Assembly (NCBI GenBank): GCA_030668485.1
Contig: DAOUTW010000013.1
Location: 2,902-66,901, forward strand
Length of the DNA stretch: 64,000 nucleotides
From: Candidatus Zixiibacteriota bacterium
Lineage (GTDB): Bacteria > Zixibacteria > MSB-5A5 > GN15 > JAAZOE01
Direction of reading: 5' to 3'
A model generated the notes under the pieces. The model did not search any database. It saw only the letters and a list, made by a program, of their open reading frames with translations, and was not told where the DNA came from. Position numbers and translations under genes: made by a program. Of this stretch, positions 15,181 to 24,836 are shown piece by piece; position 1 is the stretch's first letter, and each line of letters starts with the position of its first letter.

Positions 15181-16832
15181 CTTTCACCGGACGATTGCGT
15201 TTGACCCTGATACTGGCGGCGATATTTCCGACCGCTCTGATATCGATTATAGTCGTGATCGGTTTATCGCAACAAGTCAAGCGTATCGAAAACCGGGATG
15301 CGGAGGCGGCCTGTCTGAGATTTGCGGAATTGCTTGACAACACCTCCGCTCGCGCAAAGACAAATCTGCAATTTATTATTGACGGCCGTGAATTCCAGGT
15401 TATGGAATGGGGGCTGGACACCGACAAACCGCCTGATCCGAAATACCGGCTGCCCCTGTTATCGCTTGATTTTGTTGAATATCTGGATTCCGGCGGAATT
15501 GTCATGATATCGGCCGACCGACCGGGGCTGGTCGGGCATAAGATCGAGCTACCGCTGAGGAAAGAGCAAGTGTCTCGGAATGACCTGGTTTATGAGAACG
15601 ATCTGCACGGTTCGCATCCATCGCTGGCGATTATCATGCCGACCGAAAAAGGATATGTCAGAGGCGGTTTCTTCCTCGACGGTATATTCGGTAGTTTGGC
15701 GACGGCAGTCACCCGGTCTTCACTTGATTTCATAGATATCAGAGGAAAAGGCAGCGAGGCAGCGACATTCGAGTTGGCCGGCGAGGTCGGTGTGCCATAT
15801 CGCTCGGAGGAGAAGCTTTGCGCCGTGTTGACTTATTACCCCTGGAGTGAGTTTTACCCGATAGCACGGTTTCTGCCATATGAGCAGCAATCGTTGTTTG
15901 CTGACTTTTTTACGGCGGTAGCGGTGGTGACGATATTTTCGCTGGCTCTGATTATCCCGATCGGGCTCTATTTTTCGGCGCGGACGCGGCGGGAATTCGA
16001 GACCCTGAGCGGCGGCGCTGTGCGGGTCGCATCCGGTGATTTTTCACGCCCGGTGGTCATTACGAGCGAGGGAGAGTTTTCCGACCTTGCCGAATCGTTC
16101 AATCGGATGATGAAGCAATTGACCGATTATCGGAAAAAGTTGATCGTGTCGCAAAAAGTTGCAGCCTGGCAGACTATCGGCCGCAAGATCGCTCATGAGG
16201 TCAAAAATCCTCTTACACCGATCAGCATCGCCGTCGATGATCTCCGGAAAAGCTATCACGATTACCCGGATGAATATGAGAATATTCTGAATGACTGTGC
16301 GGCCACAATCAAAGGCGAGGTTGCTCGTCTTAAAAAACTAATCGATCAATTTTCGACTTTCGCTAAAATGCCTCCCCCCGAAATAACGGCGATCCCTGCT
16401 TCCGCTTTCATTCAGGATATTTCGGTGCTGTATAAGGAGGAGGTATCCGAGGGCCGACTGACCATCGAGAATAATCTCGATGATGCCTCTCTGAGGCTGG
16501 ATACTGAGCAGATGCGGCAGGTAATTATCAATCTGATTAAGAACAGTCTGGAGGCCGAATGCGAGCAATGCATTTTTCGGTTGGACAGATCCGACGATCG
16601 GATCAGATTGACGGTGGAGGACGATGGTCCCGGTTTGCCGGAAAAGATTTTGAATGAAGGACCGACTCCATATTATTCGACCAAAGAGAACGGCAGCGGA
16701 CTCGGTTTGATCATCTGCCAGCGAATCGTCTTTGACCACGGGGGCATGGTTAACATCGAAAACAAACCTGAAGGAGGGGCACGGGTGGTTATTACCCTGC
16801 CGGAAACAGATGACCAGAATATTAATCGTTGA
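15177..16832 (+). CDS. Membrane sensor histidine kinase with HAMP (NtrY-like)
   Basis: Two TM helices, HAMP, IAHEVKNPLTPI H-box, NLIKNS N-box, DDGPG and GSGLGL G-boxes. Confidence 0.9.
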   Translation: MTFTGRLRLTLILAAIFPTALISIIVVIGLSQQVKRIENRDAEAACLRFAELLDNTSARAKTNLQFIIDGREFQVMEWGLDTDKPPDPKYRLPLLSLDFVEYLDSGGIVMISADRPGLVGHKIELPLRKEQVSRNDLVYENDLHGSHPSLAIIMPTEKGYVRGGFFLDGIFGSLATAVTRSSLDFIDIRGKGSEAATFELAGEVGVPYRSEEKLCAVLTYYPWSEFYPIARFLPYEQQSLFADFFTAVAVVTIFSLALIIPIGLYFSARTRREFETLSGGAVRVASGDFSRPVVITSEGEFSDLAESFNRMMKQLTDYRKKLIVSQKVAAWQTIGRKIAHEVKNPLTPISIAVDDLRKSYHDYPDEYENILNDCAATIKGEVARLKKLIDQFSTFAKMPPPEITAIPASAFIQDISVLYKEEVSEGRLTIENNLDDASLRLDTEQMRQVIINLIKNSLEAECEQCIFRLDRSDDRIRLTVEDDGPGLPEKILNEGPTPYYSTKENGSGLGLIICQRIVFDHGGMVNIENKPEGGARVVITLPETDDQNINR

Positions 16833-18129
16833 CGATGAGCGGGAAATACGGAGCACTTTATCGGCGGCGCTCGGACGCCGGGGTTATAAGACCGATACCG
16901 CGATCAATATCGCGGCGGCGCAGGATAAGCCACTCGGCAAATACGACCTGGTACTTCTCGACGTGATGCTCCCCGATGGTAGCGGGCTGGATCTTCTACC
17001 GCATATCATGTCCGAGCCTGATCATCCTCCGGTGGTCATGATGTCGGGGGTGGCCGGGATTGAAACAGCGGTGGAATCGATTCACCGGGGAGCGGTGGAC
17101 TTTTTGGAAAAACCGTTGTCGCTCGACCGGGTGCTGGTCACTATAGAAAACGCCCTGAAGGCGGAAACGCTCAGAGCAGAAAACCTCTCTTTGTCGAAAA
17201 TGATTTATGGATCCTTCATTGGCGATTCGAATCATATTAAAAGAATAAAAAAGGAAATCGAGGCCACTGCCCCACGCTCGACGCGATTTCTGATTCTCGG
17301 AGAAAACGGCACCGGCAAGGAACTGGTGGCGCGCATGATTCATGAGCGAAGCCGTTTCGCCGAAGGGCGTTTTGTGCCGGTCAACTGCGCCGCCCTGCCG
17401 TCGGAGTTGATCGAATCGGAACTGTTCGGTCATATCAAGGGATCATTTACGGGCGCGGTAAGTGATAAAACCGGGCGATTTGCCGAGGCCGACCGGGGTA
17501 CTATCTTTCTCGATGAAATCGCCGATATGCAAGCAGAGGCTCAGGCGAAGATTTTGCGGGTTATCGAAGGTGGGGAATTACGCCCGGTAGGTTCGAGTGA
17601 AACAACACAGGTCGAATTGAATGTGATTGCCGCTACCAATCGTAATATCCTAAAACTGGTCGATGACGGTTCCTTCCGTCAGGACCTGTTTTACCGGCTC
17701 AATGTAGTGACTTTTAACCTCCCTCCCCTTCGGGAGCGGCCCGATGATATCCCTGCGCTCTACCAACATTTCCTCGAATTCTTCGCCCACCAAAGCGGAC
17801 GAGTTGCCGCAGTAGTGACGCCCGATGCGATGGAGTTGTTGACCCGCTATCATTATCCCGGAAATGTCCGGGAGTTGAAAAATATCGCGGAGCGTATTTC
17901 GATTTATGTCGATCATAAGGAGGCCTCGATAACCGATATCAGGCCGCTTCTGCCCCGTTTCGGCGACGAACCTGTTTTGGCCTTGAAAGAAGCAGTCGAC
18001 GAATTCGAAGCCGGTTATATCAGGAGGGTGATTGGCGCCTGCGGTGGTAACATGGCCGAGGCGTCCCGCAAACTCGGCTTGGAGCGTTCGCATCTTTATA
18101 AGAAAATAAAAAAACTGAACGGCGACTGA
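16810..18129 (+). CDS. sigma54-dependent response regulator (NtrX/NtrC-like)
   Basis: Receiver domain (ILIVDDE, LLDVMLP), GENGTGKEL, ESELFGH, FLDEIAD, C-terminal Fis HTH; true start ATG 16810. Confidence 0.92.
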   Translation: MTRILIVDDEREIRSTLSAALGRRGYKTDTAINIAAAQDKPLGKYDLVLLDVMLPDGSGLDLLPHIMSEPDHPPVVMMSGVAGIETAVESIHRGAVDFLEKPLSLDRVLVTIENALKAETLRAENLSLSKMIYGSFIGDSNHIKRIKKEIEATAPRSTRFLILGENGTGKELVARMIHERSRFAEGRFVPVNCAALPSELIESELFGHIKGSFTGAVSDKTGRFAEADRGTIFLDEIADMQAEAQAKILRVIEGGELRPVGSSETTQVELNVIAATNRNILKLVDDGSFRQDLFYRLNVVTFNLPPLRERPDDIPALYQHFLEFFAHQSGRVAAVVTPDAMELLTRYHYPGNVRELKNIAERISIYVDHKEASITDIRPLLPRFGDEPVLALKEAVDEFEAGYIRRVIGACGGNMAEASRKLGLERSHLYKKIKKLNGD

Positions 18130-18180
18130 TGAGTTTCGCCGAGACCGGAGATATTTACTCTCATATCATAATAATACTTG

Positions 18181-18209
18181 TTGCATAAAAAGGCGTCAAT
18201 GTCTATATT
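18181..18209 (+). promoter_or_regulatory. sigma70 promoter, exosortase locus unit 1
   Basis: TTGCAT-17 nt-TATATT; the same hexamer pair recurs at 23326-23354. Confidence 0.55.
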
Positions 18210-18307
18210 TGTTCCATAATACAATAGCCCGGGGGGATTGATCGGGCCATTTAATCGATTGTGTTACCATCTTTGAGTCTTCATCTATCATCTTATTTCC
18301 TCCCAAT

Positions 18308-18359
18308 ATCGTGATTGATCGACATCCTTGAGATTTACAACACGGTATCAATCATCGAT
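18308..18359 (+). promoter_or_regulatory. Leader motif copy 1: hairpin whose loop starts CGACATCCTTGA
   Basis: TTGATCGACATCCTTGA at 18315-18331; stem TGATTGAT 18312-18319 / ATCAATCA 18347-18354, extendable. Confidence 0.5.
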
Positions 18360-18462
18360 CTGCTCTTTCTCGGGGTGATATTTATTTTTGTACTCCGTTA
18401 AGATTTGGCGGTCGTGATATAGGCCTTGAGGTCTAAGCGGCTGCATTTCGAAAAGGTAGCTG

Positions 18463-19155
18463 ATGTCTCGTCGATATCACAAATCTCAAAGTGTTTCTGC
18501 AATTGATCGGGGTACTCATTCTATTCTTTTAATAATCCTGATGATTTCGAGCGGTTGGGGTATGGCTGCCGCATCCGGGACAACTTCTCTTTCATGGCTG
18601 GCGTGGATCGGTCTTATCCCGATATTTATTGCCATCAGGTCGTCTGTTCCCAGGGTGGCGTTTCTATACGGCGCTTTGTGGGGTGTCAGCCATTACTTCT
18701 TTTCGATGGCATCCGATGCCGCCACATTAATGGTAGCGATCTACTCGATCGGGCTGCTGACCACCGTTCCGGCGCTATACGCCTATCTCGGGGCGCGACT
18801 GACTCGCCGCTTTGGTTATCTGCCTCTGGTACTGGCCGTGGGTTGGATCTTAGTCGAGTTGGCCTTGCAACCGGTGGCGATGCAGAACGGTTTGCTGGCA
18901 AACTGCGTGAACAACGGCAGCCTTCTGAGCATTGTCGGCGGCGCTCTGGGTTATGTCTTTGTCGCCTTCTTTATAGTATATGTCAATGCGCAATTGATTT
19001 CGCTGGTCGGTAAAATCAATTTCATAGTTTCCCGCTTTTTTCTTTTGCCGATTATCGGAAAACAATGCGGGTTGATTGAAAATAAAAACCTGGCTTTACT
19101 TTCCGAATCACCTTTCAGTTATTCTCGTCCTCGTGCTCCTCCTCAAGTTATCTGA
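18463..19155 (+). CDS. Lnt N-terminal-domain-like membrane protein with C-terminal RAPP motif (putative arrest-peptide leader 1)
   Basis: WLAWIGLIP...AFLYGALWG...LAVGWILVEL...GYVFVAF..VN follows the Lnt membrane domain pattern; no nitrilase domain; ends SRPRAPPQVI. Confidence 0.75.
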   Translation: MSRRYHKSQSVSAIDRGTHSILLIILMISSGWGMAAASGTTSLSWLAWIGLIPIFIAIRSSVPRVAFLYGALWGVSHYFFSMASDAATLMVAIYSIGLLTTVPALYAYLGARLTRRFGYLPLVLAVGWILVELALQPVAMQNGLLANCVNNGSLLSIVGGALGYVFVAFFIVYVNAQLISLVGKINFIVSRFFLLPIIGKQCGLIENKNLALLSESPFSYSRPRAPPQVI

Positions 19156-19162
19156 TGCTCCT

Positions 19163-19181
19163 TGCCGCCATAACGGCGGCA
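19163..19181 (+). other. 7-bp GC hairpin just after leader-1 stop (no U-tract)
   Basis: TGCCGCC-ATAAC-GGCGGCA. Confidence 0.6.
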
Positions 19182-19252
19182 CAAACATCAAATAACGCAA
19201 GAATTATCAAATTATAACACCTCTGTTGTAATAACAGACGAGGAGGAATACT

Positions 19253-19678
19253 ATGTCTAAGAAAATGTTGTTTGTCGCGTTTATCACCTTGGGATTGATG
19301 GCCATGAATATTCCCGCTCTGGGTGCCAATGTTACAGGAAAAGTCATAGGGCGTGGCGAAGTAGGTATCCAAGGTGTGACTATTACGGTGGCCGGTACCG
19401 GGGCATGCGATGCGTATTCGACGACGACCAATTCCCTTGGCGAATTCATTATCGACTGCGACTGCGAGGCAGCAGGAAGTATAACCGCCAGCTTTTCGAT
19501 GGCGGGATACGCGCAGGCAGTGGCAACATACGATTGCGACATCCCTGAGAGTGATGTGATTATCATAATGCCGGATATCGGAGTTCCCTCAATGACCACT
19601 TATGGGGCCATTGTGCTGGTTTTACTTCTTGCCGCGACCGGTGTCTATATGTATCGTCGCCGCCGTGTGACGGCCTAA
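19253..19678 (+). CDS. IPTL-CTERM-type surface protein with carboxypeptidase-regulatory-like domain
   Basis: Signal peptide; VTGKV...GIQGVTITV...TTTNSLGEF; C-terminus VPSMTTYGAIVLVLLLAATGVYMYRRRR; SD AGGAGG. Confidence 0.85.
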   Translation: MSKKMLFVAFITLGLMAMNIPALGANVTGKVIGRGEVGIQGVTITVAGTGACDAYSTTTNSLGEFIIDCDCEAAGSITASFSMAGYAQAVATYDCDIPESDVIIIMPDIGVPSMTTYGAIVLVLLLAATGVYMYRRRRVTA

Positions 19679-19704
19679 GAGAAGTGTTTAACTGCAGTAT
19701 TGCG

Positions 19705-19731
19705 GGGCCGGAAGCAAGACTCTTCCGGCCC
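19705..19731 (+). terminator. Terminator ending unit 1
   Basis: GGGCCGGAAG/CTTCCGGCCC perfect 10-bp stem, weak U tail. Confidence 0.6.
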
Positions 19732-19876
19732 TGTTAATAGTAATAAAGTGCTTGTAAAAAATAGAATTGACTATATATTAGTTCTAAGGCAACCATATTA
19801 AATCAACCGGGCATAGATATTTAAGAATTTCTTTTTTTGGGTTTGCACGTCAAAAATTAAATCACATCACCCCACC

Positions 19877-19913
19877 GGTTGATCGACATCTTTGACAGAC
19901 TTTGTAATTAACC
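19877..19913 (+). promoter_or_regulatory. Leader motif copy 2: hairpin whose loop starts CGACATCTTTGA
   Basis: TTGATCGACATCTTTGA at 19879-19895 (16/17 identical to copy 1); stem GGTTGAT 19877-19883 / ATTAACC 19907-19913. Confidence 0.5.
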
Positions 19914-20039
19914 ACTATCCGAAAATTATCGGAGGGTGGTGGCTTAATTGTAGCGGAATCGCATTCCCCCAGTCGCAGACGAGTCGACTCCGGAATGCGA
20001 TATCTTGTGCTGTACGAATGATGAGATCAGGAAGGGTTC

Positions 20040-20729
20040 TTGTACGGGTTAAGGGAAAATTCAGACTATCGCTTGCCGGTTATCAATCGAATTGCTGAGA
20101 CAGTTCTGCTAGCCATACTTCTGATTGCCGGAGCATATTTCACAGCCGTTGTTACGGTTTCGCCGGCTCCTCCGTGGCTGGCCTGGTTCGGACTATTGCC
20201 TTTAATTCTTGCCATAAGGAATCTATCGCCGCGCTGGGCTTCAGCATCCGGGGCTTTGTGGGGATGCTGTCTATATCTGTTTTCGACGACAGTATCCGGC
20301 TCAGCGATATCAATGACGTTTTCCAATCTTCTTATCCTTGTTTTGATTCCAACCGCATATACCGGTTTAATGGGGTGGTACCGGCGTTCCTTTGGTTTCA
20401 GCCCGCTGGCGGTGGCGCTTGGCTGGGTGATTTTGGAACTGATCCTCAAGGCAACCGGCATCGGTGCCGGCATTCTATCGGCTGACCACGGATATGGTCC
20501 GTATTTTGATGTTGTCGCCAATTTCCTCGGCTATGGTTTTGTGGCCTTTTTAGTAGCTTATACAAACGCTGTTTTATTGTCATTCCCATGGCGCATCCGA
20601 TTTGATGTCGGATTGCTCCATATGACCAGAATTGTGGTGGGAGTCGAGCGTCCAACGGTTTTATTCGAACCCCACATACACTCGACATTTCACGCCCATC
20701 GGCGTCGACCGCGCGCACCTCCGGCATGA
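20040..20729 (+). CDS. Lnt N-terminal-domain-like membrane protein with C-terminal RAPP motif (putative arrest-peptide leader 2)
   Basis: Paralogue of 18463-19155 (WLAWFGLLP...GALWG...ALGWVILEL...GYGFVAF..TN); ends RRRPRAPPA; TTG start. Confidence 0.75.
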   Translation: MYGLRENSDYRLPVINRIAETVLLAILLIAGAYFTAVVTVSPAPPWLAWFGLLPLILAIRNLSPRWASASGALWGCCLYLFSTTVSGSAISMTFSNLLILVLIPTAYTGLMGWYRRSFGFSPLAVALGWVILELILKATGIGAGILSADHGYGPYFDVVANFLGYGFVAFLVAYTNAVLLSFPWRIRFDVGLLHMTRIVVGVERPTVLFEPHIHSTFHAHRRRPRAPPA

Positions 20730-20838
20730 TGACCGATCTGTCTCAATCGGTTTTATGAGAAGGAGTTTCCTTTAATCCTGAACGGGTCTTCACAGTCGAA
20801 AAAACCCGGCAGGATTGAACACTATAAAAGGAGAAAAT

Positions 20839-21909
20839 ATGCGTTACAAATCTTATCTAATGCTCCTGGCCGTTGCCGGCATGTTGGCGCTGCTTCTTGG
20901 TCAGACAGTAAGTGCCGAAAGCGATAAAATGATGCACTTTTACACCCTCAATGCGGCCGGAGAACATACTCTCACGGCGGTTTATGACGTCGATCTGGAT
21001 AAAGCCTTTACCGCTTATGCCGCCGACAAATCATCGGAATGGGGTACCGGGGTTTTGTATTTCAAGATTGGCGATGACAGAATGGAAAACATCGGGTCCA
21101 GCGAACATTTTATCGAGTTCCTGGATGCCAATTATGATAAAATGCCGGTTGATCGAGGTGATGCCTGCGATAATACTGTCACCGCGGTCTGGGTACTCAC
21201 TTGCCCATTCGATTGTACTCCAACCACTGACTGCGAGGAATGGGTCCATTATGTAGTGACAATCACCTGCCTGGACGATCCTCCATGTCCCCCCGAGGAG
21301 CCTTTATGCCTGCCCTTTGCCAATAGAATCTACGGATTTTCGACCGATCCCGTTCCCGCCTGTGTCTGTGTCGGCGGAGAGGGAGGAGTCTGTACTCTGG
21401 CTGATGGGGCGGAGGTAGACCTATTCTGGTCAGACGGTCCGGTATGTGAGTGCGCCGAGACGGCATCCGGAGCCTGCATGGTCGGTGAAGAGTGCTTTGC
21501 CGTGACAGGAGATTCATGTGCAATCCTGGGCGGCACCTTCTCGGGTGCAGGCACCGTTTGCGGGGCGGCACAGAGCGGAGATCATAATATCCCGACTCTT
21601 TCCGAGTGGGGTTTGATCATATTCTCGCTGCTGATTCTTTCGCTGGTGACTGTTGTGGTTACCCGTCGCCGGACGGCGACCTCCGCCGTCGGAGCCGGTG
21701 GTTCGATCACAATCAGCGGACCGACATTTGTCCCGGCTCGCTTTATGAAAGCGCTGGTGGTAACCCTAAGCCTGGCTGTCGTAGTCCTGGTAACGGCAAC
21801 CATCATGTCGGGCAGTATTCCCCTGCGTGATATTATCGGAACAATATTAAGCGCCGGTATCGTGGCTTATATCGTTCATCTTTGGATTGTACCCAAAGAG
21901 ACGGAATAG
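20839..21909 (+). CDS. Cys-rich exported protein with IPTL-CTERM motif followed by a two-helix membrane extension
   Basis: Signal peptide; GACMVGEEC...CAILGGTFSGAGTVC; IPTLSEWGLIIFSLLILSLVTVVVTRRR followed by about 78 more residues; SD AGGAG before ATG 20839. Confidence 0.85.
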   Translation: MRYKSYLMLLAVAGMLALLLGQTVSAESDKMMHFYTLNAAGEHTLTAVYDVDLDKAFTAYAADKSSEWGTGVLYFKIGDDRMENIGSSEHFIEFLDANYDKMPVDRGDACDNTVTAVWVLTCPFDCTPTTDCEEWVHYVVTITCLDDPPCPPEEPLCLPFANRIYGFSTDPVPACVCVGGEGGVCTLADGAEVDLFWSDGPVCECAETASGACMVGEECFAVTGDSCAILGGTFSGAGTVCGAAQSGDHNIPTLSEWGLIIFSLLILSLVTVVVTRRRTATSAVGAGGSITISGPTFVPARFMKALVVTLSLAVVVLVTATIMSGSIPLRDIIGTILSAGIVAYIVHLWIVPKETE

Positions 21910-21943
21910 TTCGGTTAATAATCGATAGAATAAACAGCGCTTC

Positions 21944-21976
21944 AATCCGGGCGGCCCAGTTGCCGCCCGGATTTTT
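21944..21976 (+). terminator. Terminator ending unit 2
   Basis: AATCCGGGCGGC/GCCGCCCGGATT 12-bp stem plus T-run. Confidence 0.75.
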
Positions 21977-22086
21977 GATACCGGTAAATTATATTGCCTG
22001 ATACACAGTAGTCTTTTCTTGACAGAGCGGGGACATAAAGATTACATTGGCGATGAGAGGCAGTTCGGGCAGTGCAGGGGAATCGA

Positions 22087-22656
22087 ATGAAAAAAAAGAA
22101 ATCACAACCGGTACAACGCAAACGGGGTTTGAAGTTCCGGCAGGTTATTGATGCCAATTGGCCCCTGTTCAAAATATATCTTCTGTTTGGTCTGGTGCTG
22201 CTGGTCCTGTTCACGATTATCATGGTCAAGCCGGTGTATTATGGGATCGTGATGCCGTTCAATAAGTTTCTGGCTCACTCCTCAGCTTCGGTGATCATAC
22301 TGCTTGGAGGCGATGATATTATCTGCTCCGGGACATCGGTTTCGACATCCGGATTCGCAATTGATATCGCCGAGGGATGCAACGGCATCTATGCTCTTTC
22401 GATTGTGATCGCCGGTATTATAGCCTTTCCCGCACCCTGGCGACCCAAATCGGTCGGATTGCTCCTGTCGATCATCCTGATCATGATCCTCAATTATATC
22501 CGTATTCTGACGTTGTGGTATGTGGGCAAGGCCGGTTCGTTTTTATTCGATGTCATGCATCTGTATGTTTGGGAATTTGTCATTATTGTGTTGGGGGCGG
22601 GGTTTTGGTATTTCTGGTATGAAAAATTTGTCAAGGCCCGCGCGGATTCTAACTAG
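22087..22656 (+). CDS. xrtH: Exosortase H (IPTL-CTERM-specific transpeptidase)
   Basis: Catalytic triad pattern IAEGCNG (Cys), NYIRI (Arg), MHLYVW (His) in a polytopic membrane protein next to IPTL-CTERM genes. Confidence 0.88.
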   Translation: MKKKKSQPVQRKRGLKFRQVIDANWPLFKIYLLFGLVLLVLFTIIMVKPVYYGIVMPFNKFLAHSSASVIILLGGDDIICSGTSVSTSGFAIDIAEGCNGIYALSIVIAGIIAFPAPWRPKSVGLLLSIILIMILNYIRILTLWYVGKAGSFLFDVMHLYVWEFVIIVLGAGFWYFWYEKFVKARADSN

Positions 22657-23239
22657 CGCGGCGCTATTTATCGTCTGTTATATTCCGGTCAGTCTGTTAT
22701 GGTCGCAGGCTTTGCCGTCCTACAGTCGCATAATAGCGGCTGTCTCCGAGACATTTGTCAATATAATCGAGTTTTCCGATACAACATACAGAATCTCGGT
22801 CGTAAATAATGATTTTCAGGTTATCGCGCGCCTATCGGTCGACGACAAGCGCGGGCGCAGCAAGATGTATAAACTTGACGGCACGAGAAAGGCCGATCTG
22901 GTCTCGTATAATCTAAGCCTCTGGTTTTGTCTGTTTGTGGCAACCTTTTACTGGGTCAACCCATCGGCCCGGTGGAAATATTTAGTCATCGCGCCGGTAA
23001 TTATAATCATTTGGCATGTCTGTGATCTTACCATATTTTCGAAAAATACACGCTGGATACTGACCAAAAGCCTGCATGAGCAGAACGCTTCAATGATCGA
23101 ATACAGTTACAGTTGGAACTGGTTCTGGTTCTGGGCCAAGGAACTCAACCGCCGTATCATCGATCCATTCCTACCGCTGTTGCTGTGGATAATCTTTTGT
23201 GCGCGGTCATTCTTTGGACATCGGGCTACGAATAGTTAG
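22619..23239 (+). CDS. Exosortase-associated membrane protein
   Basis: Overlaps the xrtH 3' end by 38 nt; several TM helices, YNLSLWFCLFVAT and IIWHVCDL segments. Confidence 0.6.
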   Translation: MKNLSRPARILTSAALFIVCYIPVSLLWSQALPSYSRIIAAVSETFVNIIEFSDTTYRISVVNNDFQVIARLSVDDKRGRSKMYKLDGTRKADLVSYNLSLWFCLFVATFYWVNPSARWKYLVIAPVIIIIWHVCDLTIFSKNTRWILTKSLHEQNASMIEYSYSWNWFWFWAKELNRRIIDPFLPLLLWIIFCARSFFGHRATNS

Positions 23240-23325
23240 CATGGCATAGGAATCTATCCGATCGCGATTTATTTTCCTTTACGCGAGACAGCCACACAAG
23301 ATTCCCTGCCTTTGTCATTATTTTC

Positions 23326-23354
23326 TTGCATAGATAATTATCATTTCATATATT
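23326..23354 (+). promoter_or_regulatory. sigma70 promoter, exosortase locus unit 3
   Basis: TTGCAT-17 nt-TATATT. Confidence 0.55.
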
Positions 23355-23718
23355 GCAAGCATTAGAGGGCATCATCATGGGCTATCATCTATTTTTGGAG
23401 TTGTTGATCGGTAATTAATGCCATCTATCGATCATTAGTTGTGGCTTTTCTGTTTGCCCTCTACTGTGGTATCCCTCACATCTCCACCTCATCCGCCATG
23501 CAGGGAATAATTGCTATGCGCGCATAGGGCATTGATCCACCCTATTATGAAAGGAGGAAACTTATCGAATACTGTGGTATGAAAGCTATTTCAATAACTT
23601 ATAGGAATAATTCTGTCACCGATATCGGCGGATGTAAAGTTGACAAAGCTGGCAGACGGGACGTCCGCAAGCCACAAAGTTGATACTAAACAACAGATCA
23701 CTGTGTAAGGAGATACAA

Positions 23719-24357
23719 ATGTTACGATTGAGATACGCATTTATCGGGATTATATTTATACTTCTAACACTTTTCAGCTTTTCCGGAGTTTTTGGAGCCG
23801 CACTCGTCGCAGAAATCAATAACTCCACCAACTGGGAAATGCACGTTCACAAGAAGATTTGGAAAAACGCCAATGGTGATGTTGTTAAAACCGTCAATAT
23901 ATCGCCTCATTGGGTTGTGGCTGCAAAGAGTACTGGCTCCAAGGGATTTACCATCCCTGAGGGCGCAAAGGACAACGAGTTCAAGTATTACTACAAAACC
24001 ACAGTCGATACCATTCATTGCAGCGTCTCAATGTATAATGTTGATGTGTGCTCATCGCCGATTGGTATGTACTATGACGCCGGCGGTGATACGCTCTATA
24101 CGGGGTACGATAGCGATGGACCCGAATCGCCCTTTTTCTGCACTTCGGAATTTGTTTATGATTCTCTTTCAGGCCAAATAAGTTGTTCCAATCCACCTGG
24201 TTCATACACCCCGGTTTTGGGCGGAACATTGAGAGAATGCATAAAGGTCCCCAGTATGAGTATGATCGGCCTCATAATCCTTGCGGTTCTTATGGTTATA
24301 TTGGGGGTATTTGTTATATATCGCAGGAAAAACGTCTTTGCAGGAGAATATTCGTAG
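23719..24357 (+). CDS. Third IPTL-CTERM-type surface protein
   Basis: Signal peptide; C-terminus VPSMSMIGLIILAVLMVILGVFVIYRRK; SD AAGGAG before ATG 23719. Confidence 0.8.
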   Translation: MLRLRYAFIGIIFILLTLFSFSGVFGAALVAEINNSTNWEMHVHKKIWKNANGDVVKTVNISPHWVVAAKSTGSKGFTIPEGAKDNEFKYYYKTTVDTIHCSVSMYNVDVCSSPIGMYYDAGGDTLYTGYDSDGPESPFFCTSEFVYDSLSGQISCSNPPGSYTPVLGGTLRECIKVPSMSMIGLIILAVLMVILGVFVIYRRKNVFAGEYS

Positions 24358-24370
24358 GCAAAAAGAAAAA

Positions 24371-24403
24371 ATGCGGTCGGGCGCATCATGTGCCCGGCCG
24401 CAT
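24371..24403. terminator. Bidirectional terminator between unit 3 and the atp operon
   Basis: 14-bp stem ATGCGGTCGGGCGC/GTGCCCGGCCGCAT with upstream A-run (U-tract on minus strand). Confidence 0.7.
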
Positions 24404-24438
24404 TAATCAACAGGGGGTGTTGCTTTACAAAAATATAT

Positions 24439-24836
24439 CTATTTCTTCTTCGCCACTTTCAAGCGGTTCTTAGCCCGTTCGTAGGCTTCTTTGGCTCGAG
24501 GAGTATCGATTTCACCGGCAGCATTGCGAACACGCTGTTTCGCCCGTTCCAGAGATTCTCTGGCGCGTTCGAGGTCGATATCATCGGCAAATTCGGCCGA
24601 ATCGGCGAGAATCGTGCAGGTATTGCTCGAATTCTCCATAAAGCCGCCCGACACCGCAATTTTTATTTCGTTTCCGGAACCGTCTTTTACCGACAGCTTG
24701 CCCGGTTTCATCGAGGTGATGATAGGAGCATGATTGGACATGATTCCCAAATACCCAACATCTCCGGGAGCGATGATCGAAACGACATCTTCCTCGTAGA
24801 CAATTCGTTCCGGTGTAACGACTGAGAGCCTAAACA

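Follow-up and report, generated by a model that had tools for sequence, protein, structure and literature searches.

A 17-nucleotide block shared by the 5' leaders of two RAPP units in a Zixibacteria genome: a candidate lineage-specific leader RNA element

In a 64,000-nucleotide (nt) stretch of a Zixibacteria metagenome-assembled genome (contig DAOUTW010000013.1; the whole stretch is referred to as the window), the 5' leaders of two operons share a 17-nt block (17-mer) with the consensus TTGATCGACATC(C/T)TTGA, the two copies of which differ internally only at the C/T position. Each operon (unit 1 and unit 2; together the RAPP units) starts with an open reading frame (ORF) for a membrane protein with an RAPP-type C-terminus. 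The 17-mer was real and non-random, and it was lineage-private, being confined to this genome. Regarding its function, we tentatively favor, with rather less than even confidence and from the sequence alone, a lineage-specific cis element in the sense strand of the 5' leader RNA that co-regulates both RAPP units.

An earlier note on this DNA, which had pointed out the 17-mer, placed it 148 and 161 nt before the two ORFs and approximately 100 nt after promoter-like boxes, and this spacing was confirmed (Table 1). The genome-wide motif scan that it had suggested was performed on the whole 4.5-Mb assembly and returned only these two copies at one mismatch or fewer. When one leader was shuffled, a shared 17-mer at this threshold was obtained in 2 of 20,000 shuffles, corresponding to a chance of approximately 1e-4. 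The flanks of the two leaders were essentially unalignable, and the 17-mer was an island of 16/17 identity between them. Both copies were located at the same position of the leader: directly after a C-rich box, and 100-106 nt past the -10 box.

In the following, WIN denotes the window's own sequence, L002-L065 and L077 other fetched loci, and C-numbers contigs of the genome. In a maximum-likelihood tree of 22 family members, the unit 1 protein paired with that of L057 (support 99/99), among the unit 1 proteins of other genomes, while the unit 2 protein belonged to a separate starred clade (98/94) together with the unit 2 proteins of other genomes. The two genes are, therefore, paralogues that split before these genera did. 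Nevertheless, the 17-mer was shared at 16 of 17 positions between the unit 1 and unit 2 leaders of WIN, versus 13 of 17 with the unit 1 orthologue in L057 (67% protein identity). Since the paralogue split is old and the flanks are unalignable, this identity is not a residue of duplication, and the simple duplication ancestry offered as an alternative in the earlier note was rejected.

The surroundings of the 17-mer were compared with the syntenic loci L057 and L077 (regulator, leader, and unit 1), L058, L061, L062, L063, L064, and L065. Twelve distinct unit-1-type leaders had the same plan: a promoter-like box ((cgc)TTGCATAA-N17-TATATT), a hairpin with a GGGRGGAU loop (P1), a CAUCU block, and a CCUCCC box, the last of which was found 91-98 nt past the -10 hexamer in all of them except L065 (11/12). 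This conserved plan, which is absent from Rfam, is the more durable result of the present analysis. The stem of P1 was GCCCG/CGGGC in WIN and L057, but GCCTG/CAGGC in L058 and L061, with a nearly invariant loop (GGGRGGA). Block E2 of WIN was the positional homologue of the conserved CAUCU block of the orthologues. The G-rich P1 loop, which resembles a Shine-Dalgarno (SD) sequence, and the CCUCCC box approximately 65 nt downstream were able to pair in 86.5% of cells across the 12 leaders, and no compensatory change was found for this helix in the 12 sequences.

The two halves of the 17-mer, TTGATCG and ACATCT/CATCTT, were among the most over-represented sense-strand words of the leader family: in 13 leaders, the enrichment was 17-fold for ACATCT, 12-fold for CATCTT, 8.8-fold for TTGATC, and 8.2-fold for TGATCG. 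A strand bias was also observed, with 36 CATC versus 4 GATG in the same 13 leaders, and 16 sense versus 2 antisense occurrences of ACATC[CTA]T in 42 upstream regions. The degenerate TTGATCG hairpins listed in the earlier note were both real (18227-18247, conserved in orthologues, and 23404-23434, with a 9-bp stem); however, the word TTGATCG is too common (34 times in the window and approximately 22 per 64 kb genome-wide) for its recurrence to carry much weight.

Several further features of these leaders were recorded. The promoter-like box, in the form (cgc)TTGCATAA-N17-TATATT(T), headed all three leaders of the window and leaders in L004, L005, L021, L023, L046, L057, L058, L061, L064, and L065, and its -10 part was often TATATTTG or TATATTTA. 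These -10 forms recall the TAnnTTTG motif of Bacteroidota promoters. The third leader contained a pair analogous to the P1 loop and CCUCCC box: UAGAGGGC at approximately 23364-23371 and GCCCUCUA at approximately 23456-23463. The unit 2 leaders of three other genomes (L058 5560-5600, L061 2395-2425, and L064 2945-2975) carried a palindrome, GACCCATGAC(R)GGGGTCATG, just before the start codon, which was absent from unit 2 of WIN. A minus-strand ORF of 51 amino acids (18196-18351), antisense to leader 1 and headed by a perfect GGGAGGA-N6-ATG (the reverse complement of CCUCCC), was not conserved in L058 or L061 and is probably spurious.

The two stems described in the earlier note were present as described, and both were local minimum-energy folds. 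An alternative hairpin of unit 1, obtained as the RNAalifold consensus of WIN and L057, consisted of 13 pairs, and 100% of cells were paired in WIN, L057, and L077, three close sequences. Among these, one pair was compensatory (G-C to A-U) and another five had a wobble change on a single side, and sliding of the partner columns reduced pairing to 18-46%. All 7 variable paired columns were transitions, while approximately half of the changes in unpaired columns were transversions. Pairing was kept in all of these columns, several of them passing through G.U, a route that is open only to RNA of the plus strand. The maintenance of pairing despite seven substitutions is suggestive of an RNA structure, as judged from three close sequences. 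In most leaders carrying the core of the 17-mer, this core was predicted to be less paired than the average of the leader.

According to the reading that we favor, each unit would be transcribed from the conserved sigma-70-type box approximately 250-280 nt before its start codon, and the leader RNA would contain the hairpin with the G-rich SD-like loop, the CAUCU block, the CCUCCC box, and, directly thereafter, the 17-mer, which would fuse two words of the leader family (UUGAUCG and ACAUCYUU). The 17-mer may contribute the 5' strand, or both the 5' arm and the loop, to a modest hairpin, and may be the site of joint post-initiation control of both operons, either by alternative leader folding or through a common lineage-specific trans-acting partner (a protein or small RNA). 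We infer transcription of the region, action as RNA, and the existence of the partner. In a wider version, which we regard as rather doubtful, the 17-mer would be the recognition site of a lineage-specific RNA-binding protein or small RNA that co-ordinates all RAPP/exosortase-H units of this organism via their 5' leaders, and the leader family would represent a new class of Zixibacteria cis-regulatory RNA atop RAPP translation arrest. If functional, the 17-mer would be a second, upstream layer of control on operons seemingly already gated by the RAPP arrest sequence, and would provide a handle on the co-regulation of the exosortase-H surface-protein module in an uncultured phylum. As a block found in a single genome and of putative function, the 17-mer is of limited general importance.

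A number of results weigh against a leader RNA element. Regarding structure, the two stems of the earlier note did not exceed shuffled sequence in stability (z, -0.38 and -0.68). The 8 pairs of the unit 1 stem were 100% kept in WIN, L057, and L077, while 7 of the 8 never varied and no compensatory change occurred, so that the covariation looked for in this stem was not found. The alternative hairpin, although better supported than this stem, had no matching 3' strand in unit 2. The Rfam search suggested in the earlier note, performed with Rfam 15 on positions 17500-24500 of the window (E up to 10), yielded four weak unrelated matches, all far below gathering scores, and no family was matched. 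Whole-leader folds did not surpass shuffles either (z, -0.30 and -1.00).

Conservation pointed in the same direction. At the position of the 17-mer, the sequence is TTGATCAGCATTCTTGG in L057 and TTGATTAACATTCTTGG in L077, a strain variant of L057; each matched 13/17, which equals the average of the 5' leader (approximately 80%), and 2 of the 7 strain-level differences between L057 and L077 were inside the 17-mer. Nothing resembling the 17-mer was found in farther orthologues. Look-alikes of the core CGACATCYTTGA were observed in distant homologues (CGACATCTTTAG in L010, CGACATCCTTAG in L016, and CGACATCATTGT in L006); as a family-wide element, this 12-mer core was rejected, with 4 sense matches at two mismatches or fewer in 16.4 kb, an approximately 2-fold excess over the surrounding DNA that was not significant. 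A scan of the phylum gave near-matches in 259 of 285 genomes; of these, the five examined at 0-1 mismatch were ordinary coding DNA, read as LIDIFD. Furthermore, the unit 1 and unit 2 leaders of four other genomes with both units had no private block in common, with the sole exception of the promoter box shared in one; the 17-mer is, therefore, no general feature of the system. The conserved cis-regulatory RNA motif proposed in the earlier note stands in part: the leader architecture was conserved, its words were enriched, and nearby pairing was kept in the nearest orthologues, whereas the 17-mer, with its loop sequence, was not conserved beyond the leader average in the closest orthologue and was absent farther out. 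The same note had named equally conserved flanks, or a lack of covariation and conservation outside the two copies, as evidence to the contrary. The flanks were not equally conserved between the paralogues, but neither covariation nor conservation of the motif was found outside this genome.

Among the alternatives, a DNA operator or enhancer for a transcription factor, with the adjacent sigma-54-dependent response regulator as the obvious candidate, is suggested by analogy and appears unlikely. In PEP-CTERM genes of Proteobacteria, a 17-nt motif (motif 1) ending in TTTACA is followed by approximately 63 nt, a sigma-54 -24/-12 motif, and approximately 71 nt to the start codon, and it co-occurs with the PrsR/PrsK regulators (Haft et al. 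2006, PMC1569441). The present locus is similar to these upstream regions in its long non-coding sequences before exosortase-system genes, in a shared 17-nt motif approximately 150-170 nt before the start, and in the combination of an NtrC-type sigma-54 activator with a histidine kinase (PMC1569441). More specifically, the block is also 17 nt long and located 148-161 nt before the start codon, and an NtrC/PrsR-like regulator and a kinase are encoded nearby. TTTACA was found 3 nt after copy 1 (18335-18340), where copy 2 has CTTTGTAA; a weak TGGCTT-N5-TAGC site was located 44 nt after copy 2; rpoN is encoded in the genome; and operators typically show such identity (16/17) when two sites of the same genome are compared. 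On the other hand, a search for a sigma-54 motif 32-92 nt downstream gave no more than 5/12 matches at the correct spacing in leader 1 and only the weak TGGCTTAATTGTAGC (7/12) in leader 2. Leader 1 lacked any GG-N10-GC site and the orthologous leaders lacked a consistent one, in spite of canonical TGGCACG-N4-TTGC sites elsewhere in the genome. The helix-turn-helix (HTH) region of the regulator, GGNM[AT]EA[SA]R[KR]LGLERSHLYKK, was near-identical in WIN, L057, L058, L062, and L063, while the 17-mer was absent from three of these loci. The 17-mer had no dyad symmetry, and its component words were strand-biased. The regulator and kinase were both under the cut-offs for PrsR (TIGR02915; 323 versus 502.6 bits) and PrsK (TIGR02916; 83.4 versus 300 bits). 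The motif also differed from that of the PEP-CTERM system, its likeness to motif 1 being judged from the text description, in that it precedes an RAPP-ending membrane-protein ORF and not a sorted protein, lies downstream of a sigma-70-type box, is private to one genome, and is not accompanied by a sigma-54 -24/-12 motif in unit 1 or its orthologues. The earlier note had considered a repressor operator; an operator for the adjacent sigma-54 regulator is unlikely because of this missing -24/-12 promoter and the near-invariance of the HTH where the motif is absent.

It is similarly improbable, in our estimation, that the 17-mer lacks a function of its own, having either been copied from one leader to the other as a short patch (micro gene conversion) or survived by chance from ancestral leader words. 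Its restriction to one genome is consistent with this explanation, as are a degree of variation equal to that of the adjacent sequence (both across the nearest orthologues and from strain to strain), the lack of anything comparable in the leader pairs of other genomes, and the unremarkable hairpin energies. However, the low chance of sharing (approximately 1e-4) and the same place of both copies in the leader plan (after the C-rich box, 100-106 nt past the -10) are not expected from it. A 17-nt tract without flanking homology is, moreover, far below the usual tract length of gene conversion, which counts against a copied patch.

The start of a short upstream ORF, TTG ATC GAC ATC YTT GA(G/C), encoding M-I-D-I-(L/F)-(E/D), whose translation would modulate the downstream ORF, is very unlikely. 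The C/T difference and the next base (G/C) would give the conservative exchanges L/F and E/D, an in-frame TGA directly precedes the TTG in unit 1, and the same word codes for LIDIFD, LIDIFG, LIDIYE, and FIDILD in other Zixibacteria. Nevertheless, neither TTG had an SD-like sequence, in contrast to the real genes of the locus, and the frames were 28, 10, and 33 codons (WIN unit 1, WIN unit 2, and L057, respectively) with unrelated ends. WIN and L057 also differed by a frame-breaking 8-nt gap, and their substitutions were not concentrated at third codon positions. Finally, it is highly improbable that the 3' end of the 17-mer (TTGAGA/TTGACA) serves an additional, internal promoter as its -35 element: although a consensus scan found TTGAGA-16-AATCAT (9/12 matches) at 18328-18355, L057 keeps TTGGGA-16-AATCAT, and unit 2 has a perfect TTGACA (19892-19897), unit 2 lacks an acceptable -10 hexamer at 16-18 nt (CTATCC, ACTATC, and TATCCG), promoter-like matches in the region were not in excess of shuffles (5 versus a mean of 3.6), and the 5' part of the block would be left unexplained.

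Some specific devices for the putative leader RNA element were also considered. Pairing with the start region was at the background level. In unit 1, GACAUC is able to pair with GAUGUC at the start codon, and in unit 2, UGAUC/CAUC with GAUGAGAUCA ahead of the SD sequence; among random genomic windows, the energies of these duplexes (-15.0 and -13.6 kcal/mol) corresponded to the 13% and 28% quantiles. In L010, the equivalent pairing partner was not located at the real start. As for an antisense partner, no intergenic complement of 10 nt was present elsewhere in the genome, except for one match at the chance level. No site resembling an intrinsic terminator, as required for an attenuator, was found in either leader, and the stems were A+U-rich with loops of 23-27 nt. 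A Rho (rut) site was rejected: the best C-minus-G skew over 70 nt was 0.04-0.20 in the leaders, compared with a genomic mean of 0.127 and a 95th percentile of 0.243. A strong hairpin (z, -2 to -3.4) followed the CCUCCC box in part of the leaders, WIN, L057, L004, and L046 not among them, and was not regarded as a universal feature.

In known arrest-peptide systems, regulation is described as taking place at the 3' end of the arrest ORF. Here, a motif common to the 5' leaders would add a further layer. The likeness to arrest-peptide operons (SecM-SecA, MifM-YidC2, and the RAPP peptides ApdA/ApdP; PMC7897499, PMC10951233, PMC10987492) lies in ORFs that end in R-[AG]-P-P and precede another gene, with arrest being putative in the present case. 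The leaders also resemble those with SD/anti-SD pairing (expression platforms of riboswitches, RNA thermometers, and protein-titrated leaders) in being long and conserved, with a G-rich SD-like loop, a complementary CCUCCC, and a further hairpin. They differ in that no ligand-binding fold or Rfam family was recognizable, CCUCCC was not complementary to the ribosome-binding site of the unit 1 ORF (AAGGUAG), and the long-range helix was without covariation.

The genes of the window are arranged in the order of a solute-binding protein, a HAMP histidine kinase, the sigma-54-dependent response regulator (16732-18129), and unit 1, and the order of regulator, leader, and unit 1 was also found in L057, L058, L062, L063, and L077. 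Unit 1 consists of a 230-amino-acid LNT_N-like membrane protein ORF (18463-19155) followed by a sorted surface protein, and unit 2 of its paralogue (20040-20729) with an IPTL-CTERM protein after it; the genes farther downstream encode exosortase H (22072-22656), a membrane protein, and a third sorted protein. R-[AG]-P-P was present a few residues before the stop in every LNT_N-like homologue recovered (approximately 50 ORFs from genomes and metagenomes), and R224, P226, and P227 were invariant in their alignment.

Table 1. Features of the two RAPP-unit leaders, the third leader, and the adjoining genes, in window positions.
Feature	Positions	Strand	Remarks
17-mer copy 1, TTGATCGACATCCTTGA	18315..18331	+	148 nt before ATG 18463; 106 nt after TATATT 18204-18209
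17-mer copy 2, TTGATCGACATCTTTGA	19879..19895	+	161 nt before TTG 20040; 100 nt after TATATT 19774-19779
Unit 1 promoter-like box, TTGCAT-N17-TATATT	18181..18209	+	kept as (cgc)TTGCATAA-N17-TATATT in 12 orthologous leaders
Unit 2 promoter-like box, TTGTAA-N16-TATATT	19752..19779	+	consensus scan, 9/12 matches
Third-leader promoter-like box, TTGCAT-N17-TATATT	23326..23354	+	read from the sequence
Hairpin P1, GCCCG / loop GGGGGATTGAT / CGGGC	18227..18247	+	predicted fold; TTGATCG copy placed at 18238 by the earlier note
Block E2, CCATCTTTGAG, upstream copy of the 17-mer 3' half	18267..18277	+	aligns with CACATCTTTG (L058) and CACATCTCTG (L061)
CCTCCC box, anti-SD-like, complementary to the P1 loop	18299..18304	+	in 8/13 leaders; 22 times the genome frequency
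Hairpin of the earlier note, unit 1: TGATTGAT (18312-18319) / 27-nt loop / ATCAATCA (18347-18354)	18312..18354	+	local minimum free energy -10.7 kcal/mol, z -0.38
Hairpin of the earlier note, unit 2: GGTTGAT (19877-19883) / 23-nt loop / ATTAACC (19907-19913), one G.U pair	19877..19913	+	local minimum free energy -7.7 kcal/mol, z -0.68
Alternative hairpin, unit 1: GATCGA/TCGATC + TTGA/TCAA + ATT/GGT	18317..18360	+	RNAalifold consensus of WIN and L057
Third-leader hairpin, TTGATCGGTA / loop with CCATC / TATCGATCA	23404..23434	+	9-bp stem, local fold
Sigma-54-dependent response regulator, NtrC/PrsR-like	16732..18129	+	Pfam Response_reg + Sigma54_activat + HTH_8; directly upstream of leader 1
Unit 1 ORF, LNT_N-like membrane protein, C-terminus RPRAPPQVI	18463..19155	+	start ATG 18463
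Unit 2 ORF, paralogous membrane protein, C-terminus RPRAPPA	20040..20729	+	start TTG 20040

Another occurrence of the 17-mer core was noted on contig C113 (20986-21037; L066 1487-1538), where four tandem 13-nt units, GACATC(C)TTG(G)ATA, share this core within an ORF-poor gap of approximately 1.5 kb between a convergent M3-type peptidase gene and priA. Downstream of the array are TTGACC-17-TACATT and a 15-bp stem-loop with a T8 tract; this region does not encode a transfer-messenger RNA and was not conserved in 14 relatives. Despite the shared core, the array, GACATCTTGRATA, was rejected, its 11-mer being a common word that the genome contains 24 times.

In L057 and L077, the closest relatives of unit 1, no unit 2 and exosortase followed unit 1, and L077 ran into unrelated small ORFs; the module is thus laid out differently already at this level of protein identity (67%). 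Elsewhere in the genome (contig C78:14163-14711; L017), a third RAPP-ending paralogue was found, a distant one with 27% identity, and its leader carried CAUC repeats (GCAUCGCGCAUCACAUCACAUCUUAG) behind a TTGACA-17-TATTAA box.

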